Positions 696 to 13,368 of a DNA stretch of 64,000 bases are shown piece after piece. The stretch is taken from NCBI GenBank assembly GCA_910579805.1, contig CAJTWM010000014.1:14126-78125 (forward strand). Direction: 5' to 3'. How positions within the stretch are numbered: position 1 is the stretch's first letter; each line of letters opens with the position of its first letter. The notes under the pieces are model-generated. The model saw only the letters and a list, made by a program, of their open reading frames with translations. It searched no databases and had not been told where the DNA came from. The stretch is from an uncultured Lachnospiraceae bacterium (GTDB lineage: Bacteria > Bacillota > Clostridia > Lachnospirales > Lachnospiraceae). The position numbers and the translations under genes were made by a program.

Positions 696-751
696 AGGAA
701 ATCTTATGATGATAGTATTGAGATAAGCTGGAAAGGGAACAGGAGATAGCG

Positions 752-2005
752 ATGACAACAGTATTTATATCGTATTCTTGGGATTCGGATTTTCATAAAA
801 AACGAGTGAAAGAGTTTGTGGAATATTTGCGTAAACATCAAATAAAAGTCATATTTGACGGGGATGCAAGGCTTGGGGAACCTCTGCCTGATTTTATGGA
901 AAAGGGAGTGAGGGATTCTGATTATGTTTTAATGTGTTTGACGCCGATATATAAGAAAAAGGCTGATGGAAGACTAAATAAAGAAAGCGGCGGCGTTGTT
1001 TATGAAAATACCATAATAACCGGAGAAATTTATAGACGGAATAATCAATACAAATTTATTCCTGTGTTATTTGAAGGAACATGGGAACTGTCGACACCAT
1101 ATTGGGCTATCGGTAAACTTGGGGTTGACTTAAGAGAAAATATTGTTAAATCAGAAGCGGCTAAATCAGAAATAGAAAGATTGTTGAAAACATTGAATGG
1201 GAAGATGCCGGACGATGTATTTTTTGGGTCCTGTCAAATACCGGATGAAGAAAAGGCCAAGAAGAAAAAAAGTAATAAACGGATTATTGTTTTTATTATC
1301 ATTATAGCTGTAGTGATTGTTGCCGCCTTATTTGGAGTCGATCTTATAAAGAAGGTAATAGTAGCAAAAGAAAATACTCCTGTGGGTACATACATTTCTG
1401 AATCTGATTTTGTTGAAAAGAGTGTAAAATCGGACATTGATTTATCTATGGAGGAACTTTTAAATACAATATGGGAAGATAGTAACTATATACGCTCCCA
1501 ATATATAAAAAATTTGATTGGCACGGGGATTCGGCGTTATAATAGGAAAGATTTTTCCTGTGCAGGCGCTTTGTTTGAACAGGCGATTATAGAAGGCGAT
1601 GAGGGGGTTACTGCGAAAAATAATTTATCTTTCATGATCCGGCGGCAGGAATATAAATCTGAAAATTATGAGCTGGAAGATTTATTGAAACAGTGTAGGG
1701 AAAACGGAGGTGCGTTTGCATCAATTAATTATGCTATGTATCTTGTTTCTGTTAATGAATGGGAGGAAGCGGATTTACAATTTAAAATGATAACATCCTC
1801 CGACCCGGAAATAAAAGAATGTATTGACTGGTGGAAAGGTTTGTATGACCAAAACGAACCGGAAGGCAGTTTGGTTTTGGGCTGGTTATTAAAATATGGA
1901 TTTTATGAAGATAAAGAAAAGACGGCATCCGATTATTTTGAAGAGGCAAAACAATATTATGAGGATATGCCGGATTCTTTGTATTCGGAATCTGATTCAG
2001 ATTAG
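752..2005 (+). CDS. TIR-superfamily (SEFIR/TIR_2-like) domain, one TM helix and a C-terminal TPR/Sel1-like helical repeat domain
   Basis: AGGAG RBS. The N-terminus 'VFISYSWDSDFHKKRVKEFVEYLRKHQIKVIFDGD...DSDYVLMCLTPIYKKKAD' matches the SEFIR/TIR beta-A/alpha-A/beta-B pattern. 'KKKKSNKRIIVFIIIIAVVIVAALFGVDLI' is a positive-inside TM helix. The C-terminal ~215 aa is helical, rich in aromatic and acidic residues, and repeat-like. The gene is visibly more AT-rich than its neighbours. Confidence 0.7.
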   Translation: MTTVFISYSWDSDFHKKRVKEFVEYLRKHQIKVIFDGDARLGEPLPDFMEKGVRDSDYVLMCLTPIYKKKADGRLNKESGGVVYENTIITGEIYRRNNQYKFIPVLFEGTWELSTPYWAIGKLGVDLRENIVKSEAAKSEIERLLKTLNGKMPDDVFFGSCQIPDEEKAKKKKSNKRIIVFIIIIAVVIVAALFGVDLIKKVIVAKENTPVGTYISESDFVEKSVKSDIDLSMEELLNTIWEDSNYIRSQYIKNLIGTGIRRYNRKDFSCAGALFEQAIIEGDEGVTAKNNLSFMIRRQEYKSENYELEDLLKQCRENGGAFASINYAMYLVSVNEWEEADLQFKMITSSDPEIKECIDWWKGLYDQNEPEGSLVLGWLLKYGFYEDKEKTASDYFEEAKQYYEDMPDSLYSESDSD

Positions 2006-2102
2006 CGGAATATAAGCGAAATTACGATTATCGAGTTTATTTGGCATATTATCATAATGGGGATTTGGCGGCGGAATAAAAGTTAGGAATATATTGTATT
2101 TT

Positions 2103-2133
2103 AAGGCGTTTGTAATATACAGGCGCCTTTTTA
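2103..2133 (+). terminator. Putative rho-independent terminator after the TIR gene
   Basis: AAGGCG (2103-2108) pairs with CGCCTT (2124-2129) and is followed by a T-run. The stem is short. Confidence 0.45.
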
Positions 2134-2188
2134 TATTGGATTAGAAACAAATTAGGAATAAAAAGCGGAGGGCAGGAAAAGAAGAAAT

Positions 2189-2515
2189 TTACAGATGATC
2201 CGCATAGGCTTTCAGCATATGGTAAAAAAGCCGTTGATCCCTTTTGGGAAGGCTCTCATATAATATCAGGAACTCGTTGGATACGATATCGAACCGTTCT
2301 GTATGGGAATGCCCAATTACGTCTCCGGCGGAACACTCCAAAAGATCGCAGATAGAAACTAAAGTATCCAGACTTAGTCTTGCAATTCCGCGCTCTATCT
2401 GACTGACAAATCCGGTAGACAGATCCAGTAGTTCAGCCATCTGTTCCTGCGTCAGTTTTTTCTGTTTTCTGTAATATTTGATATTTTTTCCGAGGATTTG
2501 ATAGTCAACGCCCAT
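2189..2515 (-). CDS. XRE-family helix-turn-helix transcriptional regulator
   Basis: 'LTQEQMAELLDLSTGFVSQIERGIARLSLDTLVSICDLL' is a canonical Cro/C1 HTH. A GGAGA RBS lies upstream. Confidence 0.85.
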   Translation of the reverse strand: MGVDYQILGKNIKYYRKQKKLTQEQMAELLDLSTGFVSQIERGIARLSLDTLVSICDLLECSAGDVIGHSHTERFDIVSNEFLILYESLPKRDQRLFYHMLKAYADHL

Positions 2516-2707
2516 GGCAGGATTCTCCTTTATTTCTGATACCGAGTTTTTTATGTAACTTATTGTCTATGATTAGTTGAAGCAAATACAGAAGTTTATA
2601 GTTCTGATTTCATATAAACTAAAGTATATAATGTTGTTTTATGATAGTAATAGTGCTAATATATAAAAAACAAGAAGTAATAGTGTTACTTTTATGAGGA
2701 AGGAGAA

Positions 2708-5698
2708 ATGAGGATGATGAAGCTGATGAAGAAAATTTTGGCGGCTGTCTTGATTGCTGGTCTTTTGGGAAGTTCTTGTGACATGACTGTGTCAGCCAAA
2801 GAAAGTGCGGTTGTACAAACAGCTCAAGAGATACAGGAGACAGAGGGGATGGAAAGCGGCCCATCCATGGAAACGGATGGAAAGGAAACTTACGATGCAG
2901 GCAAAAAGAGTGCGTTAGAAGAATCTGGTACGGATGTCAAAAGCAGAACGGAAGAAGAATCCGGCACAGATGTCAAAGACGAAAGGGAAGAGGAATCCGC
3001 GACGGATGTCAAAGACGAAAGGGAAGAAGAATCCGCGACAGATGCCAAAGACGAAAGGGAAGAAGAATCCGCGACGGATGTTAAAAACGAAACGGAAGTG
3101 GAATCCTGTACGGATGCAAAAAATGAGACAGAAGAATCCGAAACGGATACAAAAGAAGAGCAAACAGAAGAAATGACGGGAAATGAATCCGAGCCCGAAA
3201 AGGAAACAGATGTGCAGAGAAAGGATACATCAGAGACAGAGCCGGGAACAGAAACAGGGCCTGAGCTTCTGACGATAGGCGGCGGGACGCTTCTTTCGGC
3301 GGCCGGGGATGGGGTCAGCCGTGTGGAATGGCTTTCGGAATTGACGGCATTGTTTGAAATGTCAGTGGAGCAGGACAACTATCCGGATAATTATTTTTTG
3401 GATATAGACGCCTCGTCCCCGTATTATTATGCGGTCATGCTGGCAACGGAATTTGGGCTGGTGGATGTGGAGGCAGGCGACGCCTTCAGGCCGGATGATG
3501 CGGTGACAAGGGAATTTGCGGCGCATACGATGAACTTCTGTCTTGGCTTTGAGACGGAGGAAAATGCGGGATATAGCTTTAATGAAGCGGATAGTGTCAC
3601 TTATGCGGAGGACATTCAGGTCGCGGTCAACAGGGGGTGGTTCCAGCTGGTATCTGGCAGTTTCCTTCCTGACGCAGCCGTCACCGAAGCGGAAAAGGCG
3701 GCAATATTTGCGGATGCGGAGGGGATACTAGCGGCAGACCAAAAAGACCCTGCGCATGTCAATACCTACACCTTTGCCGATGGCGTGACGGAGCTGGCGC
3801 AGGCGGAAGTAAGTGCGGAGCAGACGGGAGAAAATGAGCTGACCTTTTACAGCGGCTGGGAAAAATTAACGGCGGGCAATAAATACGGAATGGTATTGGA
3901 CGGGTTTCCGATCGTCTTTAAGGTTACCGGCCTTGTGCCTGCTGACGCAGGAGCCGTGGTGCAGTTTGAGACTGTTCCCATGGAGGAGGCTTTCAAGGAT
4001 ATTGATTTTCAGGGAAACGGTGAGGTGGACCTTGCCTCCATACAGGCATACAGCGACGAGGTGGAGCTGCACTATATCGTGGGCGGCAGTGAAGAGCAGA
4101 AGTGGGAGGACGGTACAAAATATGATACCCTTGCGGAAGTCGGGGAGCAGGAGATCAGCGCGGTTGAGGTAATTACGGATTACCCTTTGGACGGCGTGTC
4201 TAAGGACATCAATCTGGGGAACGGCGCAAAAGCGAAGATAAGCTGTAAAGTGAGCAATGTAAAGAAGGATTTTGGCGTGAGCCTGACCAAAGGCTATGCT
4301 TTTGTCAATGTGGACGCAAAGGTAGAGTTTGGCTGCAATGTCAATATAGGAATGATGGAGGGCGCCGGCATATCCCCGGTGCTTGAATTGGTGCGCATAC
4401 CGGTTTCAGGTATCGGCTATTTCAGCGTAAAGCTGGATGCGAACATAACGGGCGGTGTGACGGTGAGCCTTGTGGAGAATGTATCCTTGGGGTTGAGGTT
4501 TGACGGGGACGGTTTCCGCATGACGAAGGATTTCAGCAAGGATTCTTTTACCATACAGACGCGGATGGAGATCAGCGCAGGGGTGACGGCAACGCTTGCC
4601 CTGAATAACTGCGGCTTTATGTCGGGAGAATTATATGCAAAGTTCGGGGCAAAAAACGTGCTTGACTCGATCCGGTATAACGACGGCAGCTCACCGGCAA
4701 TGTGCGCCAACCACAACGCATGGCTTTATGCCACGGCAGGCGGGTTTGCAAGGGTGGACTTTGGGGTTTATGACAAATCATGGAGTAAGACTTATTCCAT
4801 CTACAACGAGAAAAACAGCCCGGTGCGAATCTCCTTCCATTATGAGGACGGTGTGGCGGTATCAAAATGCTCGAGAGGGACAAAGTGGGGACCTTCCGGA
4901 AGGAGATGGGGGTATTATACTGCGGCGGATTCAAGATACGGGTATAACGGCGAGAGCGGCGGAATCGGGGCAGGCGGTGAGCCCTTTACGATTTTTGAGT
5001 ACAGTCTGGACGAATACGATAATGCTACGATTACAAGCTATAGGGGGAATGTGTCGGCGCTGAGCATTCCGGAGACGCTGGACGGGCATACGGTTGTTGG
5101 GATTGGAAGTGGGGTGTTTCAAAATAATAAGCTGTTGCGGATGGTGGTGATGCCAGATAGTGTGACGGAGATAGGGAATTATGCATTTGAAGACTGTAGC
5201 AATCTGTCAAGCGTGACATTATCCAAAGGGGTGACAAGCATAGGATATAGAGCATTTTGCAATTGTGATTCTCTAACGGAAATAGAAATACCAAAGAGCT
5301 TGAAAACGTATTATGGTGGTCCTTTTAGAGACTGTGATGGGTTAAAGGAAGTGACTTTTGAGAAAGGGACAACGGAGGTTGCCAGCAATCTGTTTTCATA
5401 CTGTCCGGGAATAGAGGAAATAACAATACCGGATACGGTCACGGTAATAGAGTATGGCGCGTTTAATAATTGTAAAAATTTATGTAAAGTTGATATTCCA
5501 AGTTCTGTAACAGAAATAGAAAGAGATGCATTTAGCAAATGTGTAAATTTGGAAAGGATATTGATACCAGACAGTGTAACGGACATGGGTACTTACATAT
5601 TCGCAGGCTGCAGCAGCCTTACAGAGGCAAAACTGCCCAGCAAAAGAAAAAATATTACCGAAGGGACTTTCAAAGACTGCGTAAGCCTTGAAAAGTAA
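2708..5698 (+). CDS. Secreted cell-surface protein, N-terminal part of a split giant adhesin: signal peptide, acidic tandem repeats, SLH-like modules, a central beta-rich region and BspA-type leucine-rich repeats
   Basis: AGGAAGGAG RBS. The signal peptide is MRMMKLMKKILAAVLIAGLLGSSC. There are (EESxTDVKDERE)n repeats. The C-terminus has repeated '...IP.SVT.IG..AF..C..L..V.L' LRR_5/BspA units. It ends at a TAA that interrupts an LRR unit. Confidence 0.8.
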   Translation: MRMMKLMKKILAAVLIAGLLGSSCDMTVSAKESAVVQTAQEIQETEGMESGPSMETDGKETYDAGKKSALEESGTDVKSRTEEESGTDVKDEREEESATDVKDEREEESATDAKDEREEESATDVKNETEVESCTDAKNETEESETDTKEEQTEEMTGNESEPEKETDVQRKDTSETEPGTETGPELLTIGGGTLLSAAGDGVSRVEWLSELTALFEMSVEQDNYPDNYFLDIDASSPYYYAVMLATEFGLVDVEAGDAFRPDDAVTREFAAHTMNFCLGFETEENAGYSFNEADSVTYAEDIQVAVNRGWFQLVSGSFLPDAAVTEAEKAAIFADAEGILAADQKDPAHVNTYTFADGVTELAQAEVSAEQTGENELTFYSGWEKLTAGNKYGMVLDGFPIVFKVTGLVPADAGAVVQFETVPMEEAFKDIDFQGNGEVDLASIQAYSDEVELHYIVGGSEEQKWEDGTKYDTLAEVGEQEISAVEVITDYPLDGVSKDINLGNGAKAKISCKVSNVKKDFGVSLTKGYAFVNVDAKVEFGCNVNIGMMEGAGISPVLELVRIPVSGIGYFSVKLDANITGGVTVSLVENVSLGLRFDGDGFRMTKDFSKDSFTIQTRMEISAGVTATLALNNCGFMSGELYAKFGAKNVLDSIRYNDGSSPAMCANHNAWLYATAGGFARVDFGVYDKSWSKTYSIYNEKNSPVRISFHYEDGVAVSKCSRGTKWGPSGRRWGYYTAADSRYGYNGESGGIGAGGEPFTIFEYSLDEYDNATITSYRGNVSALSIPETLDGHTVVGIGSGVFQNNKLLRMVVMPDSVTEIGNYAFEDCSNLSSVTLSKGVTSIGYRAFCNCDSLTEIEIPKSLKTYYGGPFRDCDGLKEVTFEKGTTEVASNLFSYCPGIEEITIPDTVTVIEYGAFNNCKNLCKVDIPSSVTEIERDAFSKCVNLERILIPDSVTDMGTYIFAGCSSLTEAKLPSKRKNITEGTFKDCVSLEK
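2918..3140 (+). repeat. In-frame 36-bp tandem repeat array of about 6 units encoding the acidic 12-mer EES(G/A)TD(V/A)K(D/N)E(R/T)E
   Basis: Direct reading gives units starting at 2918, 2954, 2990, 3026 and 3062, then degenerate units. Neighbouring copies differ by a few bases only. Confidence 0.9.
5689..5698 (+). other. Frame-change site that splits the adhesin gene, at the A4 tract 5691-5694
   Basis: The upstream frame reads ctt gaa aag TAA (LEK*). The -1 frame reads (tga) aaa gta aac ttc cca aaa acc ttg gaa tgc = KVNFPKTLEC. This continues the LRR unit 'FKDCVSLEK|VNFPKTLECIRPYAFYN' in phase. Confidence 0.85.
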
Positions 5699-5712
5699 AC
5701 TTCCCAAAAACC

Positions 5713-8700
5713 TTGGAATGCATCCGCCCTTACGCCTTCTACAACACCAAATTATCCGAAGCAGTATTACCGGAGTCGCTGACCAAAATAGAAAGCTACG
5801 CCTTCTACAACTGTGACAACCTAACCAAAGTAGAACTGAAAAATAACCTAACCGAAATCGGAAACTACGCTTTCTACGACTGCGACGCATTGGAAACCAT
5901 CGCCATCCCCGACAGCGTCACCACCCTCGGCATTTACCTCTTCGCAGAAAGCGAACTCCTAAGCGACGTGACACTTGGCACAGGGATCACCACGATCCCG
6001 TCCTATGCCTTCAACCTATGTCCGTCCTTAAAAAAGATCATCCTGCCGTACCGTGTGGAAAAGATCAACAGCAGCGCGTTCACCAACTGTACCGCCCTGA
6101 CGGAGATCACCATACCGCGGGCAACCGCCGCGATTGCAGACAGTGTATTCAGCTACCCGTCAAGGCTTACCATATACGGCATCAGCGGAACTTATGCGCA
6201 AACCTATGCCGACCAGATAGGGGCGACGTTTGTCAATAAAGAAACAAAAGCGACATCCGTGTCATTTAATAAAACCGAGATGAAGCTGATAAAGGGAAGC
6301 AAATCCAAACTGGTATTGCGTATATCACCTTCCGATTTTACGGATCAGGTTTCATGGAAGAGTACGGATACCGATGTGGCTGCTGTGGATGATGCAGGGA
6401 CTGTGACTGCCAAGGCAGTGGGCAGTGCGACTGTCAAAGTAACAGTCGGTGACGTCAGTGCGTCCTGTAAGATTACCGTGACCCAGCCTGTTACCTCCAT
6501 CAGCCTGAGCAAGACGTCCCTTTCCCTTGAGGCGTTTGACACCGAAACCCTTACCGCATCAGTATATCCTTCCAATGCGGAAAATAAGGAAATCCTGTGG
6601 AGCACTTCGGATGATAAAATAGCATCCGTAGACGGAAACGGCACAGTCATGGCAAAAACAAAAGGAAACGCGACGATTACGGCAGCGGCACAGGACGGCA
6701 GCGGCGTTTCAAGAAGCTGCAGCGTGACAGTGGTAAATAACGGGTATCTCTGCAGCAGCGTATCGGAGCTGGAAAGCGGGCATAATTATCCGGCAAACTG
6801 CTCTGACTTCTGGATTTATACGAAAGAAGGGGCGGAATCATTACATATTGCTTTTGACGCGAGAACGAACGTGGAGGAGGGGTTTGACTATATTTACCTT
6901 TATGACGGCAGCGGAAAAGAAACGGGAAAATATACAGGGACACAATTGGCAGGGCAGAGTGTGGAAATTACCGGCGATACGGTAAAGATCAAGCTGGTTT
7001 CGGATGATGCGGGAAACGCGTGGGGCTTCAAGGTCACCTCTGTCATTGGGACGGGAAATGTAGAAAATGACGAATGTCTGGTTACTTTTGACCCACAGGG
7101 AGGCAGCCCGGTTCCGTCTGTCCAGATTCCCAAAGGTGAGGCAGTAGGGGAGCCGCAGGCGCCGGTGAGAAAGAATTACGTCTTTTTAGGCTGGTATCTG
7201 GACGGGGAGCTTTATGATTTTACAAAGCCAGTAACGGGGAATATTGTCCTCAAGGCAAGATGGAAGTTTACACCCGGGGAGGAAACGCCGGGAGAAGCAG
7301 ACGGCGTCTTAACGGAGGATATGCCCGCGGACGGCATCATACCGGACGGGCTGTGGATTGCGGGAGTCAGCGACCAGATCTATACGGGAAAGGCATTGAA
7401 GCCGGAGGTAAGGGTATATGACGGAAACCGGAGGCTGAAAGCAGGGACGGATTATACTATAAGCTATAAAAGAAATACAAAGGCAAATGATGCCTCCGAT
7501 GCAGGGAAAGCGCCGACAGTCACGGTCAAAGGAAAGGGCAACTATTCAGGCAGCGCGTCAGCCGCCTTTAAGATCATCCCGGTAGACCTGAATGACAGTA
7601 CGGTATCGGCAGCAGATATTACGTTGGCCTATAACGGGAGATTACAGAAGAAAGTACCGGCAGTAACATTTAACGGCAGGAAACTGTCCGTGAACAGGGA
7701 CTTTACCGTATCCTATCCAGACGGAGCGGGCGGGGCTTACCGGCGGACCGGCGAATATTCCGTAGAACTTAAGGGAAGCGGGAACTTTGCCGGGACAAGG
7801 ACTGTAAAGCTGGAGATCACGGACAAGGAGCTGATAGAAAAGGCGAAGGTGGCAAAAATAAAGAGCCAGCCCTATAGGGATGGGGAAGAAGTGACCCTGC
7901 CAAAGTCGGAGCTGACCGTGTATACAAAATCAAAAAATATGCCGCTGACAGAAGGGACGGACTATACGCTCCGCTATGAGGATAATAAAGAAATCGGCAC
8001 GGCGTCTGTTTTCATCACAGGGATGGGTAGCTATGCCGGGACGAAAAAGGTTACTTTTCAGATTGTTGGCACGCCGCTTAATAAAGCCGCTGTGGAGGGA
8101 ATAGAAAATAAAGTTTATAACGGGGAAGGGCAGCGCCAAAACCTGAAGCTCTCACTGAACGGCACGGAGCTAAGGGAAGGCAGGGACTACACCGTCTCCT
8201 ATGAGAAAAATGTCGATGCAGGGACGGCAAAGATGACAATAAAGGGCTGCGGCGGCTACAGCGGCACGATCAGGAAGACCTTCAGGATCACCGCCTACGA
8301 TCTGGGGAGGGATGACAGCCGCCTGCTCACAGGAATAGATAAAAACCTTGCCATGCATTATGTAAAAGGCGGCTGCAAGCCGGAATTAGTATTAAAGTTT
8401 AACGGCAGGGAATTAACAGGCGGAACAGATTACAAGGTTTCTTATGCGAATAACAAAAAGCCCGCCGATGCCTCCGCGGATAAAGCGCCGCTTATCATAA
8501 TAAAAGGCAGGGGGAATTTCAAGGGCACGATATCCGTCCCCTTCTCCATCCTAAAGAAAAACCTTGCAGACTCCGAAGCCCCTGTGTCCGTTGAGGCAGC
8601 GGATGTGGGGTATGTGAAAGGTGCCGGGAAATATATCAGCAGACCGGTCCTGACGGATACGGACGGCAAAGTATTAAAAGCGGGCACGGATTATGAAGTA

Positions 8701-9153
8701 AGCTACACGCTTTCGGACGGGATCACGAAGCTGGATAAGAAGAGCACTGTCAGTGCAGGAAATGACGTATGTGTGACTGTGAAGGGAAAAGGGAATTACG
8801 AGGGGACGCTGTCCACGACCTACCGCATAACGGAAAACCGGTTTGCACAGGCAAAGGTTACGGTTACGCCGAAGATTTATACCGGAAGGAGGGTATACCT
8901 GTCCAAAGAGGATGTAAAGGTGACGGTAAAAAATGCAGGAAAAACGGAGGAGCTTACATACGGCACGGATTATGAGATCATAGAAGACAGCTATACCAAT
9001 AACCTGAAAAAAGGGACTGCCAGTGTGAAGGTCAGGGGACTTGGAAAATACGGCGGGACAAAGACTGTGAAGTTTAAGATTCAGGCGAAGAAGATGGAGG
9101 TGTTTGACATTATTGTGAAAAATTCCGGAGTATTGAAGTTTGCGATACAATAA
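5713..9153 (+). CDS. C-terminal part of the split giant adhesin: more BspA-type LRRs, two Big_2-like Ig domains, a CUB-like domain, a Listeria-Bacteroides (Flg_new) repeat and seven MBG-like repeats
   Basis: The track start is a TTG with no RBS, and the frame is open from 5692. LRR units run up to ~aa 170. Big_2 pattern: 'SWKSTDTDVAAVDDAGTVTAKAVGSATVKV'. CUB-like: 'GHNYPANCSDFWIYTKEGAESLHIAFDARTNVEEGFDYIYLYDG'. Flg_new: 'VTFDPQGGSPVP...YVFLGWYLDGELYDF'. No LPXTG-type anchor at the C-terminus. Confidence 0.8.
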   Translation: MECIRPYAFYNTKLSEAVLPESLTKIESYAFYNCDNLTKVELKNNLTEIGNYAFYDCDALETIAIPDSVTTLGIYLFAESELLSDVTLGTGITTIPSYAFNLCPSLKKIILPYRVEKINSSAFTNCTALTEITIPRATAAIADSVFSYPSRLTIYGISGTYAQTYADQIGATFVNKETKATSVSFNKTEMKLIKGSKSKLVLRISPSDFTDQVSWKSTDTDVAAVDDAGTVTAKAVGSATVKVTVGDVSASCKITVTQPVTSISLSKTSLSLEAFDTETLTASVYPSNAENKEILWSTSDDKIASVDGNGTVMAKTKGNATITAAAQDGSGVSRSCSVTVVNNGYLCSSVSELESGHNYPANCSDFWIYTKEGAESLHIAFDARTNVEEGFDYIYLYDGSGKETGKYTGTQLAGQSVEITGDTVKIKLVSDDAGNAWGFKVTSVIGTGNVENDECLVTFDPQGGSPVPSVQIPKGEAVGEPQAPVRKNYVFLGWYLDGELYDFTKPVTGNIVLKARWKFTPGEETPGEADGVLTEDMPADGIIPDGLWIAGVSDQIYTGKALKPEVRVYDGNRRLKAGTDYTISYKRNTKANDASDAGKAPTVTVKGKGNYSGSASAAFKIIPVDLNDSTVSAADITLAYNGRLQKKVPAVTFNGRKLSVNRDFTVSYPDGAGGAYRRTGEYSVELKGSGNFAGTRTVKLEITDKELIEKAKVAKIKSQPYRDGEEVTLPKSELTVYTKSKNMPLTEGTDYTLRYEDNKEIGTASVFITGMGSYAGTKKVTFQIVGTPLNKAAVEGIENKVYNGEGQRQNLKLSLNGTELREGRDYTVSYEKNVDAGTAKMTIKGCGGYSGTIRKTFRITAYDLGRDDSRLLTGIDKNLAMHYVKGGCKPELVLKFNGRELTGGTDYKVSYANNKKPADASADKAPLIIIKGRGNFKGTISVPFSILKKNLADSEAPVSVEAADVGYVKGAGKYISRPVLTDTDGKVLKAGTDYEVSYTLSDGITKLDKKSTVSAGNDVCVTVKGKGNYEGTLSTTYRITENRFAQAKVTVTPKIYTGRRVYLSKEDVKVTVKNAGKTEELTYGTDYEIIEDSYTNNLKKGTASVKVRGLGKYGGTKTVKFKIQAKKMEVFDIIVKNSGVLKFAIQ
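7378..9090 (+). repeat. Seven tandem protein modules of ~80-90 aa (MBG-like: Y.G....P.V....G..L..GTDY.VSY..N...GTA.V.V.G.GNY.G....F.I)
   Basis: The motif 'GTDY(T/K/E)(I/V/L)SY' followed by 'KG.GN(Y/F).G(S/T)' recurs seven times in the translation. The repeats are divergent at the DNA level. Confidence 0.75.
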
Positions 9154-9173
9154 ACCGGATAATAATAAGTTGC

Positions 9174-9220
9174 AAAACAGCCGCAAACTGTATGATTACA
9201 AACATTGCGGCTGTTTTGCT
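9174..9220 (+). terminator. Rho-independent terminator of the adhesin gene
   Basis: Perfect 13-bp stem, AAAACAGCCGCAA (9174-9186) with TTGCGGCTGTTTT (9205-9217), and a T-rich tail. Confidence 0.85.
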
Positions 9221-9373
9221 GTCAGAACAGATTTTAATGGCTTTTATTTTTTACAAATGATATAATGGGGAAAATATAGGAATAAACAAAAGCAATATTG
9301 TGTTTGATGAAATACCAATGAAGTGTATATTTTGGCCATAAAATGTAAATATGTCATGAAACGGAGGGAGTTT

Positions 9374-10003
9374 ATGCTTACAAGGCAGCAAAATATTTTT
9401 TTAGCAAAGAAAATATTTACGGAACTTGTGTTTAATACTGCTTATATAGAAGGATGTAATGTAACTTTTCCGCAGACGCAGACTATTATTGACGGGGCTG
9501 TGGTCAATGGCATATCCGTAGACGATATACAAACCGTTTTAAATCTTAGGGACGGATGGAAATTCGTTATAAATTCCGTGGATAAACCGTTGACATTAGA
9601 GTATGTCTGCACGATAAATGCATATGTATCGAGAAACGAAAGTCTGGAATGGGGAGTATTAAGAAAAGGAACTGTCGGAGTAGGCAGCTTTCTGCCGACT
9701 ATTCCTGTTAAAGAAGATGTGGTAAAAGAAATAGAACGTATAAACGGGATCGATAAACCTATCGACAGGGCGTTGGAGTATTTTGCATACGCTTGTAAGC
9801 AACAATTATTTTGGGATGGAAACAAACGAACCTCTACGATGGTTGCCAGTAAAATTCTGATAGAGAATGGAGAGGGCATATTGACCATTGGAAAAGATCA
9901 GGCGGAAGAATTTAATGTAACCTTGAATAATTGGTATTTAAGGGACGAATTGCAGCCGTTAAAAGATTGTCTGAAAAAATGTATCAGAACGTTAGAGATA
10001 TAA
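9374..10003 (+). CDS. Fic/Doc-fold protein with a non-canonical active-site motif
   Basis: GGAGGG RBS 5 nt before the ATG at 9374; the track start at 9323 is less likely. N-terminal 'TAYIEGCNVTFPQTQTII' and 'GVLRKGTVGVG' match the Fic core layout. The motif region reads 'ACKQQLFWDGNKRTSTMVASKILIENG', compared with canonical HPFxDGNGRxxR and Doc HxFx(D/N)(A/G)NKR. Confidence 0.65.
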   Translation: MLTRQQNIFLAKKIFTELVFNTAYIEGCNVTFPQTQTIIDGAVVNGISVDDIQTVLNLRDGWKFVINSVDKPLTLEYVCTINAYVSRNESLEWGVLRKGTVGVGSFLPTIPVKEDVVKEIERINGIDKPIDRALEYFAYACKQQLFWDGNKRTSTMVASKILIENGEGILTIGKDQAEEFNVTLNNWYLRDELQPLKDCLKKCIRTLEI

Positions 10004-10041
10004 AGACAATGCCATGTACGGCATGAAAAGAAGACAAAAAG

Positions 10042-10069
10042 AGCTCTGTAAAAGTCAGGGCTTTTTTTT
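10042..10069 (+). terminator. Putative terminator after the Fic-like gene
   Basis: AGCTCTG pairs with CAGGGCT (one G-U pair) and is followed by T8. Confidence 0.5.
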
Positions 10070-10072
10070 AGG

Positions 10073-10121
10073 TTGACAGTCTAACAGTTGTTAGGTATAA
10101 TAGAATCTAACAACTGTTAGG
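10073..10121 (+). promoter_or_regulatory. SigA-type promoter with two copies of a 14-bp palindromic operator, a likely TetR autoregulation site
   Basis: TTGACA (10073-10078), 17 bp, TATAAT (10096-10101). 'TCTAACAGTTGTTAGG' (10080-10095) fills the spacer. Its inverted version 'TCTAACAACTGTTAGG' (10106-10121) sits between the -10 and the RBS. Confidence 0.75.
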
Positions 10122-10132
10122 GAGGATGAGAA

Positions 10133-10744
10133 ATGAATGAAACGAAACAAAAAATATTAGACGCCGCATTAGATCTGTTTTCTCAAAAAGGGTTCTCTGC
10201 GGTTTCTATCAGGGATATTTGTAAAGTGGTAGATATCAAGGAAAGCTCGGTCTATTATCATTTCAAAAATAAACGGGACATCTTTGATGAATTGCTGCTG
10301 CGTTTTGAAGCGATAGCTGCGGATCTGATGGGCCGGTTGGAAGAGGGGCTGTCGACTCCGCCGGATACCTATGAGGGAGATTTATTTGAAAAGACCTGCG
10401 ATTGTTTTTTTGAAAAGTATCTGATGGACGGATATTGTAATAAAATGATGCGGCTGCTTTCCATTGAACATTTGCATAATGAGGAGATGCAAAAAATATA
10501 TGCCGACTGGATTTTTGACAGGCCGCTGCAGTTTCAGGCAAAAGTGTTTTCCGTGTTGACGGCGGCGGGTATCGTCAAAACAAAAGACAGCGATTATCTG
10601 GCAGTAAAATTTTATGGGCCGATTTTTCTTTTTATGCAGCGCTGGCTTTTTCATGGGGCTTTGACGGAGGAATGCAGACAAACTTTTCGGGAAAACGCGT
10701 ATCGGCATGTGAATTATTTTTTTAAGGAAATGGAGGAAATATAA
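10133..10744 (+). CDS. TetR/AcrR-family transcriptional regulator
   Basis: 'KQKILDAALDLFSQKGFSAVSIRDICKVVDIKESSVYYHFKNKRDIFDELL' is a canonical TetR_N HTH. Confidence 0.9.
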   Translation: MNETKQKILDAALDLFSQKGFSAVSIRDICKVVDIKESSVYYHFKNKRDIFDELLLRFEAIAADLMGRLEEGLSTPPDTYEGDLFEKTCDCFFEKYLMDGYCNKMMRLLSIEHLHNEEMQKIYADWIFDRPLQFQAKVFSVLTAAGIVKTKDSDYLAVKFYGPIFLFMQRWLFHGALTEECRQTFRENAYRHVNYFFKEMEEI

Positions 10745-10745
10745 T

Positions 10746-11504
10746 ATGGCAAATATACTGATCGTAGGCGCCAATCAGGGGATTGGTTACTATCTTACGG
10801 AAAGATTGCTGGAATTGGGAAATTTTGTAGCGGTATTGGATATTAGGACGGATGCGGTTGAAGCGCTAAAAGCAAAATATCAAAAGGCGGTTTTGCCGGT
10901 CATTGCTGACGCGCGGAATCTTTCAAGCATCGAAAACGGAGTACGGCAGGCTGTCGAACGTTTCGGAACGATCGATATTGCGATACATAATGCCTGTATG
11001 TGTACTTTTGAAGGCGAGAAGGATACGGATTATGAAACGTATCAAAAGGTAATGGACATAAATTATTTTGGGGCGCTGAGGCTGGCGAAAACCGTTTTAC
11101 CGTATATGCGGAAAGCGAAAAAGGGGCGTATTATTTTTACGAGTTCAGGCGTAGGGGTTACCGGATTTTTTAATATTTCTCCTTATGCCGCTTCGAAAGG
11201 GGCGATAGAATCATTGGCAAAATGTCTGGAAATAGAAAATGAAGAATATGGGATTTCCTTGCACTTATTTCATCCCCCGTTGACAAACACAAGGTCGGCG
11301 TCAGGTATTCCGATCCCAAAAGAATTTAAGGCGGAAGCAAAAAAAGTCGGTTATGGCTTGGCCGAGCGCATTTGGTCAAAAAAGTTTGTGATCTGTCATT
11401 GCGCCAGTCAGGCGGCCCAAGTCAGGTTTTGCTACCGGCATCCTCTTTATATAGGGAAAATGATGACGAAGGCAGCCAGAAGGGCTGTCGGATCAAAAAA
11501 ATGA
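10746..11504 (+). CDS. Short-chain dehydrogenase/reductase (SDR) family oxidoreductase
   Basis: 'ILIVGANQGIGYYL' is the Rossmann TGxxxGxG variant. 'SSGVG...YAASKGAIESL' is the catalytic S...YxxxK. It lies 1 nt downstream of the TetR gene. Confidence 0.85.
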   Translation: MANILIVGANQGIGYYLTERLLELGNFVAVLDIRTDAVEALKAKYQKAVLPVIADARNLSSIENGVRQAVERFGTIDIAIHNACMCTFEGEKDTDYETYQKVMDINYFGALRLAKTVLPYMRKAKKGRIIFTSSGVGVTGFFNISPYAASKGAIESLAKCLEIENEEYGISLHLFHPPLTNTRSASGIPIPKEFKAEAKKVGYGLAERIWSKKFVICHCASQAAQVRFCYRHPLYIGKMMTKAARRAVGSKK

Positions 11505-11619
11505 AGAGGAACGGAAATGGTTTTTATTTAGTATTTTGAGAGGTTTGCGTACTTCACATTTCTTTCTTTGTTTGGTACAATAGTACTATCATTGGCAGAT
11601 AAAGAAAGAAGGGGTATGA

Positions 11620-13368
11620 ATGATACACAAAGAGAAAGCGGAACAGCTTTTACATCAGCAGTATCATTGTTCACAGGCTTTGTTTGGTGCGTTTGCAAAG
11701 GATTTCGGATTGGATTTGAAAACGGCGTTTAAGATCAGCACATGCTTTGGGGGAGGCATGCGTCAGGGCGGAACGTGCGGATGTATTACGGCGTCCCTGC
11801 TGGTGCTTGGGATGGCGCTTGGATTTTATGATTCTCAGGATAGGGAAAAAGAAGTATACGGAAATAAAAAGACGGATGAGTTTATTAAACGTTTTACGGA
11901 CGAGATGGGAGGAGACGTTTATTGCCGCGATATTTTGGGGAAAGATATTTCAAAACCGAATGAAATGGCGGTCATCCGTAAGGAAGGTCTGATTCTCCAG
12001 AAATGTCCGAGAGCATTAAATGCCAGCATAGAAATTCTTGAAGATATGCTGTCAGATTATTTTAAAGACATGGTGGAGAGCAGTATCGGGCTGGAAGATA
12101 TCCCGGAAAACGACGAGATGCGCAGCGTATTGAAGAGCGTCAGTAAGCTCAACCGTTTCAGGAGAAATGTGAATAATCTATTGTATTCCTCTTCAAAAGA
12201 GATCGGATTTATTCAGTTCGATATCCGTAAATTTAAGATTGTAAACGATTTGTACGGAGAAAGATTCGGAGACGAAATTCTGGATTTTGTTATAAGGCAG
12301 TTACAGGAAATCTGCCACAGCGAGCAATTTTTTATCAATCTGAGGAGCGATGTGTTTATGGTGGTGACGGAATATGAAGAGGAAGAGGAACTGGTAGACT
12401 TCATACGCCGCCTGAATGAAAAGATCAGTAATTTTAAAGAAGTAAAGCTGCAGATGTCTTACAGCGTGTATACGGTAGAAGACCGGGAAATGGAGCTTCG
12501 ACAGATGGAAGACCGGGCCGCCATGGCAAGAAAAGCCGCCAAAAAAAATATACTGACGAATATTTTATTTTATAAAGAACAGTTTAAAGAATCTCTCTAT
12601 AACAGAAAATTTATCGAAGAGAATATGCAGGCTGCCGTTACGGAGCGACAGTTTATGATGTATCTTCAGCCTAAATACAGCATTGAAAAAAACGAGATCA
12701 TAGGGGCGGAAGCATTGGTAAGGTGGAAACATCCTGAAAGAGGGATGATCTATCCGAATCAGTTTATTCCGATCATTGAAGAAAATGGATTTATTAAAAA
12801 AGTAGATTATTACATATGGGCGGAAGCCTGCCGGTTTATTAAAAAATGTGAAGAGGCGGGAATAGAGTCCTGTCCGGTATCCGTAAATGTGTCCCGGATC
12901 CATTTAAGGGATGATGAATGTATCCATGTATTGTCCGATCTGATCAAAGAGAATGACATTCAGAAGCAGTTACTGGAATTGGAGATTACGGAAACTGCGG
13001 ATGACCAGCAGGTCAGTATGAAGGCGCTGCAGTTGAAAGAAGAAGGGTTTACTTTATTGATGGATGATTTCGGCAGCGGATATTCTTCTTTGAATATTCT
13101 GCTGGAGACGCCTTTTGACGTGATTAAACTGGACAAAAAATTTATGGAAAACATGATGGTTTCGGGAAAAGGAAGGCTCATTCTGGAACAAGTTGTTTCT
13201 ATGGCGGATAAACTGGATCTGGGGCTTTTGGCAGAGGGAGTGGAGACGAAGGAACAAATCGACTTGCTGCAGAGTATCGGCTGCGATCAGGTACAGGGAT
13301 ACTATTATGCAAAACCTATGCCGGAAGAAGAATTTTTTGTACTTTTGAAAAAACAGAAGCTGGGATGA
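11620..13368 (+). CDS. C_GCAxxG_C_C-family domain, degenerate GGDEF and EAL: a putative c-di-GMP phosphodiesterase
   Basis: N-terminus: 'YHCSQALFGAFAKDFG...CFGGGMRQGGTCGCITASLLVLG...VYCRDILG...QKCPRAL'. Middle: 'FDIRKFKIVNDLYGERFGDEIL' but 'LRSDVF' in place of RxGGDEF. C-terminus: 'EALVRW', 'ELEITE', 'DDFGSGYSSL', 'KLDKKF', 'AEGVET', 'QGYYYAKP'. Confidence 0.8.
   Translation: MIHKEKAEQLLHQQYHCSQALFGAFAKDFGLDLKTAFKISTCFGGGMRQGGTCGCITASLLVLGMALGFYDSQDREKEVYGNKKTDEFIKRFTDEMGGDVYCRDILGKDISKPNEMAVIRKEGLILQKCPRALNASIEILEDMLSDYFKDMVESSIGLEDIPENDEMRSVLKSVSKLNRFRRNVNNLLYSSSKEIGFIQFDIRKFKIVNDLYGERFGDEILDFVIRQLQEICHSEQFFINLRSDVFMVVTEYEEEEELVDFIRRLNEKISNFKEVKLQMSYSVYTVEDREMELRQMEDRAAMARKAAKKNILTNILFYKEQFKESLYNRKFIEENMQAAVTERQFMMYLQPKYSIEKNEIIGAEALVRWKHPERGMIYPNQFIPIIEENGFIKKVDYYIWAEACRFIKKCEEAGIESCPVSVNVSRIHLRDDECIHVLSDLIKENDIQKQLLELEITETADDQQVSMKALQLKEEGFTLLMDDFGSGYSSLNILLETPFDVIKLDKKFMENMMVSGKGRLILEQVVSMADKLDLGLLAEGVETKEQIDLLQSIGCDQVQGYYYAKPMPEEEFFVLLKKQKLG

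Follow-up and report, generated by a model that had tools for sequence, protein, structure and literature searches.

Relation to known defence systems

The closest described relative of the gene reported here is the SEFIR system (bSEFIR) of Bacillus sp. NIO-1130 (Millman et al. 2022), a single gene that protects against phage phi29 and whose one protein depletes nicotinamide adenine dinucleotide (NAD+) through its N-terminal SEFIR domain (10.1101/2022.05.11.491447; 10.1101/2024.02.11.579819; 10.64898/2026.09.04.749371). SIR2 domains, TIR/SEFIR domains and calcineurin-like phosphoesterases have all been listed among the NAD+-depleting immune effectors (10.64898/2026.09.04.749371). According to one account (PMC11350192), bacterial TIR systems apparently lack the surface-receptor logic of the animal interleukin-17 (IL-17) and Toll receptors. 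Here we report on a 64,000-nucleotide stretch of DNA, hereafter the window, from an uncultured Lachnospiraceae bacterium (assembly GCA_910579805.1, contig CAJTWM010000014.1, positions 14,126 to 78,125), and on one intact open reading frame (ORF) within it (752-2005, + strand). The ORF encodes 417 residues from an ATG start, and its full-length extent is supported by the ORF call, by 13 homologs and by their alignment. Its product reads as a SEFIR - transmembrane (TM) - Sel1/TPR-like protein, and we consider it probable, if only somewhat so, that it is a stand-alone, membrane-anchored variant of bSEFIR that would trigger NAD+ depletion from an extracytoplasmic sensor. To our knowledge, nearly every NAD+-depleting defence protein characterised so far detects infection from within the cell.

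Like bSEFIR, the window protein has an N-terminal SEFIR domain with the glutamate of the G-V-G-x-E motif, is encoded by a single gene and has a sporadic, accessory distribution, with NAD+ depletion as its expected output. Canonical bSEFIR proteins are soluble and about 300 residues long, and two of them (P0068 and P0097) match the family model to position 284 with 228-246 bits, whereas the window protein has, in place of the canonical half (model positions ~185-290), a TM helix, then an acidic stalk and finally a Sel1/TPR-like domain. The effector class is thus already known; what is new is the membrane-spanning sensor chassis on a bSEFIR effector. We found this architecture for a membrane-anchored bacterial SEFIR/TIR receptor nowhere in the literature searched, which left out many subscription papers. 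The original prediction, made from the letters of the sequence, had taken characterised TIR-type defence proteins to be soluble or paired with an effector gene, and in this it overlooked the published single-gene, NAD+-depleting SEFIR system. It had rightly noted that no ThsA-like or other effector gene is adjacent, the neighbours being AraC- and XRE-family regulator genes; since the published system depletes NAD+ by itself, this is expected and not a novelty.

The comparison with Toll and IL-17 receptors, also drawn in the original prediction, stands in part. As in the IL-17 receptor (IL-17R) and the Toll-like receptors (TLRs), one TM helix lies between a predicted cytoplasmic SEFIR/TIR domain and a predicted outside domain of repeat type, and activation by clustering is plausible. 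The order is the mirror image, however: those receptors have an N-terminal ectodomain, whereas the window protein places its SEFIR domain at residues 3-150, its TM helix at 178-196 and its repeat domain at 233-411, with reversed polarity. The ectodomains are unrelated as well, and the expected output here is enzymatic (NADase), in place of adaptor recruitment. The resemblance is one of logic and not of family, and there is no evidence for shared ancestry of the whole architecture.

Two further groups of bacterial systems are comparable. TIR-TPR and TIR plus TM systems, such as E. coli TIR-II (PMC11350192) and BcTir/Tpr (10.1101/2023.05.26.542521), and SIR2- or STAND-type sensors that end in Sel1/TPR repeats likewise combine an effector, of the TIR superfamily or otherwise NAD+-degrading, with a helical-repeat sensor, and the relatives of the C-terminal domain cap SIR2, Metallophos, TIR and STAND proteins. 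These systems are cytoplasmic, or have their TM and TIR parts on separate proteins, in contrast to the SEFIR and repeat domains studied here, which share one polypeptide and are predicted to lie on opposite sides of the membrane. With Thoeris, the protein shares a TIR-superfamily domain that is predicted to act on NAD+. A Thoeris-like pairing was rejected, as the protein has no match to the ThsB model, no ThsA-like gene is adjacent and the unit is mobile as one gene. The sole ThsA-like match in the genome is on another contig, where a 295-residue open frame (G000:C1:350630-351334, - strand) matches the SIR2 part of the ThsA model (E=1.4e-20).

The N-terminal SEFIR domain

By profile and structure comparison, the N-terminal 150 residues were assigned to the SEFIR domains of bSEFIR type, with the conserved glutamate retained. 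Residues 3-150 (758..1201, + strand) constitute the predicted cytoplasmic SEFIR domain of the TIR superfamily and the predicted NADase effector, as identified through Pfam, PADLOC, the PDB and Foldseek. Over residues 3-134, Pfam TIR_2 (3e-15) and SEFIR (1.2e-10) both exceed their gathering cut-offs. The PADLOC bSEFIR model (PDLC03957) matches the entire protein at E=2.8e-49 and residues 1-150 alone at 2e-48, these residues contributing 164 of the 167 bits, and this locus is its sole match in the whole genome. No PADLOC model matched residues 151-417, and full bSEFIR membership was rejected for the C-terminal half, where the bSEFIR model has no match after residue 150. In phmmer searches of the PDB, the only solved structures matched were SEFIR proteins, namely that of B. 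cereus (5y8e/5y8f, 1e-11) and human Act1 (1e-3). A Foldseek search with the predicted model returned 5y8e as the top match, followed by many TIR domains.

In the PDB phmmer alignment, the segment GGVVYENTIIT of the window protein is aligned with GGVGTETMIIT of 5y8e. This identifies Glu85 (codon 1004..1006, + strand), in a G-G-V-x-Y-E motif, as the candidate catalytic glutamate, on the basis of its conservation and of its alignment with the glutamate of 5y8e. Both Glu85 and Asp36 are invariant in the alignment of 14 family members, and 109 of 120 SEFIR-domain matches contain a motif of G-G-V-x-Y-E form. The G-V-G-x-E glutamate is reportedly the catalytic residue in bSEFIR, and analogy with TIR domains points the same way. 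The SEFIR/TIR opening and the candidate glutamate had both been picked out in the original prediction, which also anticipated the single TM helix after a basic patch and the C-terminal helical repeats described below.

Membrane helix, stalk and predicted topology

Residues 178-196 (1283..1339, + strand) are the sole hydrophobic segment of the protein, 19 residues with a mean Kyte-Doolittle value of 3.52. Their assignment as a single TM helix rests on this hydrophobicity, on a helix at 177-194 in the structural model and on an invariant L-F-G end (L193, F194 and G195 in the 14-member alignment). The helix is preceded by a basic juxtamembrane patch, KAKKKKSNKR (1253..1282, + strand), which is predicted to face the cytoplasm: 7 of the 15 residues before the TM segment are K or R in the window protein, and the same flank is K/R-rich in 14 of 14 homologs. 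The helix is followed by a stalk, residues 197-232 (1340..1447, + strand), that is acidic, poorly conserved and left disordered in the AlphaFold2 model with predicted local distance difference test (pLDDT) values below 50; the 40 residues after the TM helix are net acidic in 14 of 14 homologs. From the K/R-rich N-terminal flank and the acidic C-terminal flank, the positive-inside rule predicts that the N-terminus is inside and the C-terminus outside (type II), which would give the C-terminal domain an extracytoplasmic location.

The mean pairwise identity in the family is 71% in the SEFIR domain, 41% in the linker and TM helix, 34% in the stalk and 75% in the C-terminal domain. This indicates two constrained domains joined by a linker that is free to vary. 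It also bears on whether the helix serves only as a tether, such that the TM segment and the C-terminal domain keep a constitutively dangerous SEFIR NADase inactive or localised until a phage protein inside the cell, or proteolytic release, activates it. An amoebal TIR NADase of bacterial origin can be tolerated only in a form that keeps its TM helix, and proteolytic release from the tether has been suggested as a possible mode of activation (PMC13142454), while canonical bSEFIR and other TIR systems detect infection in the cytoplasm (10.1101/2022.05.11.491447; 10.1101/2024.02.11.579819). Other metagenomic SEFIR-domain proteins (P0023, P0026, P0027 and P0037) have a TM helix directly after the SEFIR domain and C-termini that are unrelated to the one studied here. 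Membrane-anchored SEFIR proteins thus occur in several forms, and anchoring itself may be the selected feature. However, a tether has no need for a 180-residue domain that is conserved at 75% identity, carries its own motifs and belongs to a wide family, and in the protein as a whole conservation is lowest in the stalk and TM region. We therefore regard a tether as rather unlikely; were the protein only a tethered bSEFIR, it would be a modest extension of a known family.

The C-terminal domain and its relatives

The sensor that our favoured reading calls for would be the C-terminal domain, residues 233-411 (1448..1984, + strand), an all-helical, Sel1/TPR-like domain that is predicted to be extracytoplasmic on the evidence of the AlphaFold2 model, Foldseek and the relatives of the domain. 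In the AlphaFold2 model built with the family alignment (mean pLDDT 70), these residues form ten helices with pLDDT values of ~85-95. Foldseek matched the C-terminal part to consensus TPR (CTPR) proteins, SEL1L and MamA at E~1e-2. In sequence comparisons, Pfam Sel1 and TPR gave no match to the window protein at E<=1, the Sel1 protein 6ork in the PDB matched it weakly (E=0.17), and no Pfam family matches anything after residue 150. Weak Pfam matches at E of 0.01 or worse, DUF4419 and DUF6548 among them, were dismissed as noise. The domain has motifs of its own, NNLxFMxRRxEY (also given as NNLAYMxRRxE) and EGxLVLGWL.

An exhaustive phmmer search with residues 225-417 against 1.84 billion representatives returned 219 proteins at E<=1e-3, nearly all of which have the module at their extreme C-terminus. 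The closest relatives (>90 bits) fall into two groups. One has a TM helix just upstream of the module (P0015, P0123 and P0126); the other combines Cu_amine_oxidN1 and a subtilase (S8) domain with classical signal peptides (P0124, P0125, P0127, P0128 and P0131). That the closest relatives are anchored by a TM helix or carried on secreted subtilases favours an extracytoplasmic position of the C-terminal domain in this branch.

We scanned 41 long relatives of the domain with Pfam to count their fusion partners, the families overlapping between proteins. Bona fide Sel1 repeats occur just upstream of the homologous module in 16 of the 41. The remaining partners are SIR2_2 (10 of 41), Metallophos (9 of 41), the STAND-type NTPases AAA_16 (8 of 41), NPHP3_N (6 of 41) and NACHT (3 of 41), nSTAND_NTPase5 (2 of 41), Peptidase_S8 with Cu_amine_oxidN1 (6 of 41), and TIR_2 and a bacterial death-like domain, bDLD3 (1 of 41 each). 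Sensor modules of conflict systems are usually recognised by this arrangement, a single terminal module joined to effectors that can be exchanged. The effector-swapping pattern among the relatives is thus typical of a sensor, the role that we would assign to the C-terminal domain. The module lacks a Pfam family and recurs on proteins with SIR2, calcineurin-like phosphoesterase, TIR or STAND-NTPase domains and on secreted subtilases, and as a candidate sensor domain it deserves a name and further study.

About half of the family (P0002, P0006, P0007, P0009, P0010, L036 and L037) have an extra conserved C-terminal extension of ~190 residues (residues ~415-604). This extension of the 600-residue homologs has no Pfam match, and it looks beta-rich in a poor model (mean pLDDT 49.5, range ~35-60).

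Distribution and mobility

The gene is, by its distribution and its flanking DNA, accessory, mobile as a one-gene unit and horizontally acquired. A search for full-length homologs gave 13, at 52-99% identity. Such homologs come from only three of 185,579 species genomes, all of them Lachnospiraceae metagenome-assembled genomes, and from a dozen metagenomic clusters. The SEFIR gene was not found in five congeneric species genomes, nor the C-terminal domain in a further 300 genera of the family. Upstream of the SEFIR gene lie a housekeeping cluster (plsX, rnc, smc, ftsY) and then genes for a pyridoxal phosphate (PLP) enzyme, YitT and an AraC-family regulator. The ftsY, PLP-enzyme and YitT genes are kept in all five congeners, and AraC was matched in three (G001, G003 and G004). 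AraC is retained in congeners that lack the SEFIR gene, and was therefore rejected as a functional partner.

In G003, AraC is directly followed by a GGDEF-EAL gene (at 11620 in the window), and the DNA alignment resumes ~75 bp upstream of the GGDEF-EAL start. Window positions ~696-11545 are therefore an extra segment. This strain- or species-specific segment of ~10.9 kb (696..11545), absent from G003, has a mixed composition and contains the SEFIR gene, the XRE gene, two ORFs for BspA-type leucine-rich repeat (LRR) proteins, and Fic, TetR and short-chain dehydrogenase genes. In G001 and G004 the genes after AraC are ylxM-ffh, found on another contig in this genome. A prophage or integrative element as the carrier is unsupported: there is no tRNA within 20 kb, there are no flanking direct repeats, and a Pfam search of the ORFs in the segment gave no integrase. 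The SEFIR gene itself has a G+C content of 35.7%, against 44.1% +/- 4.2 (standard deviation) for genome windows of equal size, which places it at the 5th percentile, a real but moderate deviation. Greater AT-richness than the surroundings, a position between AraC and XRE regulators and acquisition by horizontal transfer had all been proposed in the original prediction and are borne out, and the accessory distribution and one-gene unit argue against a conserved core gene with a housekeeping partner.

The extent of the transferred unit is best seen in two homologous loci, L010 and L037, whose proteins are 94% identical. Their DNA is 95.6% identical over 1,928 bp only, a stretch that starts 113 bp before the ORF and stops 15 bp after its stop codon, and their flanks are unrelated. 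Since the two loci share a lone gene with its upstream region, the transferable unit is a single gene and no partner gene is needed. A conserved upstream region of ~115-130 nt is common to L010 (5888-6000), L037 (7888-8000), L036, L006, L030 and L028; it includes an extended -10-like element, TGGTATAAT/TGATATAAT, and, ahead of the start codon, a conserved box, ATATAGTTATATT..GGGGTATG.

A metagenomic contig of the same species has the identical AraC-SEFIR-XRE order. The neighbourhoods of other homologs are defence-like and contain the PADLOC candidates PDC-S61 and PDC-S05/RhuM beside small-phage-like genes, a NACHT-pentapeptide gene together with a Sel1/TPR gene, or transposases. Across the homolog contexts we found no conserved neighbour gene apart from XRE genes, which are not orthologous. 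Upstream of the P0009 homolog (loci L006-L009), four co-oriented genes (694, 373 and 471+272 residues, or a fused 754 residues) recur on many metagenomic contigs. They have no Pfam or PADLOC match and may represent an uncharacterised neighbouring system.

Proposed mode of action and its alternatives

TIR-superfamily NADases need ordered oligomerisation for activity, as in SARM1, AbTir and TIR-STING and the filaments of TIR-SAVED, and lateral clustering is a natural mode of regulation for a single-pass membrane protein. Taken together, these two properties make a type II clustering model the best supported. In this model the protein would be inserted with its SEFIR domain toward the cytoplasm, where NAD+ is available, and its Sel1-like domain toward the cell wall, and at rest monomers would be held apart in the membrane. 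An envelope event, such as phage adsorption or injection or damage to the wall, would be bound or sensed by the outer domain and cause the protein to cluster; alternatively, the trigger could be the loss of contact between the outer domain and a wall component. The clustered SEFIR domains would then form the oligomer needed for NADase activity and convert NAD+ to ADP-ribose and nicotinamide, so that the infected cell would stop supporting phage growth (abortive infection). If this is true, bacteria can couple surface sensing directly to a TIR-superfamily effector, as animal IL-17 and Toll receptors do.

A bolder form of the proposal, which we put forward only tentatively, is that this could be the first bacterial 'outside-in' SEFIR receptor. 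Its extracytoplasmic Sel1-like domain would detect phage attack, or the resulting wall damage, at the surface, before or during genome entry, and transmembrane clustering would then activate the NADase in the cytoplasm, as a prokaryotic counterpart of IL-17R/TLR logic. The C-terminal module would then be an unnamed sensor shared with SIR2, phosphoesterase and STAND immune proteins.

Several points weigh against a membrane-anchored bSEFIR that is triggered from outside. NADase activity, phage protection and topology are all properties that we infer for this architecture. In the Pfam hmmscan search TIR_2 scores higher than SEFIR (57 against 42 bits); the criterion of the bSEFIR authors was that SEFIR similarity exceeds TIR similarity by HHsearch (Millman et al. 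2022). The distant relatives of the C-terminal domain are without TM helices and presumably cytoplasmic, which indicates that the domain is not intrinsically extracellular. It is also conserved as strongly as the enzyme domain, which would be unusual for direct recognition of fast-evolving phage proteins; such conservation argues for a conserved ligand, either a component of the host envelope or a conserved phage feature. The window has no recognisable defence island, with housekeeping genes upstream and co-inserted genes for surface proteins, Fic, TetR and short-chain dehydrogenase. Finally, a TGnTATAAT-like element is conserved ~115-130 nt upstream in the homologs and is missing from the window copy, which lacks their upstream region and abuts the AraC gene directly. 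Expression in this genome is thus uncertain, as the promoter-like upstream region has been lost and the gene starts 56 nt after AraC.

Some of these observations would also suit a role outside immunity, in which the outer domain of an envelope signalling or stress protein monitors a wall or environmental cue and the SEFIR domain serves as a protein-protein adaptor or produces a nucleotide signal whose target is encoded at another locus, with no abortive infection involved. The presence of close C-terminal-domain relatives on secreted subtilases hints that the domain binds some component of the envelope, the strong conservation of the domain fits a host ligand, and the local neighbours are surface proteins and regulators, with no defence genes. 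The SIR2-domain ORF with ThsA-like similarity elsewhere in the genome would fit as well. Yang et al. 2018, as quoted in 10.1101/2022.05.11.491447, proposed that bacterial SEFIR domains are general interaction modules. A sporadic distribution and a mobile single-gene unit are unlike a physiological sensor, however; the SEFIR domain matches the model of a defence family at 2e-48 with its glutamate kept, and among the more distant relatives the sensor module is found joined to immune domains of NAD+-degrading and STAND type. For these reasons we consider a non-immune function unlikely, and favour the membrane-anchored bSEFIR variant.

The convergent XRE gene

Immediately downstream of the SEFIR gene and in convergent orientation lies a gene for a 108-residue XRE-family helix-turn-helix (HTH) protein (2189..2515, - strand; Pfam HTH_3, 2.6e-14), which resembles CapH and the control proteins of restriction-modification systems. 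A convergent XRE gene immediately follows the SEFIR gene in 5 of 7 distinct contexts (the window, L010, L030, L033 and L037, and not L006 or L036). HTH_3 has only ~38 matches in the 3.6-Mb genome, or ~1% of genes. This tail-to-tail recurrence of a rare gene class, together with the CapH-like character of the window XRE, is what speaks for a two-gene module, with the XRE repressor as an obligate partner of regulatory or antitoxin-like kind.

The XRE genes of the different contexts do not behave as such a partner. They are mutually unrelated outside the HTH, or have no similarity at all, and the 94%-identical SEFIR proteins of L010 and L037 are accompanied by unrelated XREs. The XRE lies outside the 1.93-kb unit that these two loci have in common, since their shared DNA stops 15 bp past the stop codon, and the convergent genes have no common promoter. 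An obligate, co-inherited XRE partner was therefore rejected, and a two-gene module is very unlikely. As the XREs are neither orthologous nor part of the shared unit, we regard the association, real as it is, not as a second component but as a positional preference or a loose regulatory link.

A 16-nt motif, ATAGAAACTAAAGTAT / ATATAAACTAAAGTAT, has one copy within the XRE gene (2352-2367) and another in the divergent promoter region between the XRE and surface-protein genes (2612-2627). It could be an operator, or a chance match.

Other features of the locus

The AraC-family gene upstream ends at 695, so that just 56 nt separate its stop codon from the start of the SEFIR gene, and we found no promoter-like site in this gap. 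A ribosome-binding site, AGGAG (741..745, + strand), lies 6 nt 5' of the ATG. Some 100 nt 3' of the SEFIR-gene stop codon is a hairpin resembling an intrinsic terminator (2103..2129, + strand), with a 12-bp stem followed by a T-run.

Elsewhere in the segment, the products of two adjacent ORFs (window 2708-9153; 996 and 1146 residues) are BspA-type LRR surface proteins that contain SLH, Big_2 and Listeria-Bacteroides repeat domains. LRR_5 repeats close the first ORF and open the second in different frames, so that the two may be one gene of ~2,150 residues split by a frameshift or an assembly error. The first of them contains six tandem copies of a 36-nt unit (2881-3168), which encode an acidic 12-residue repeat. 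Next is an ORF of the Fic/DOC family (9323-10003, 226 residues) in a second patch of low G+C (33-35%), followed by the TetR and short-chain dehydrogenase genes. Upstream of the window, in the intergenic region between the PLP-enzyme and YitT genes (G000:C14:12215-12531), a short element matches at least 30 other sites in the genome (40-110 bp, 83-93% identity), and it looks like a dispersed repeat of the repetitive extragenic palindrome (REP) or miniature inverted-repeat transposable element (MITE) kind.

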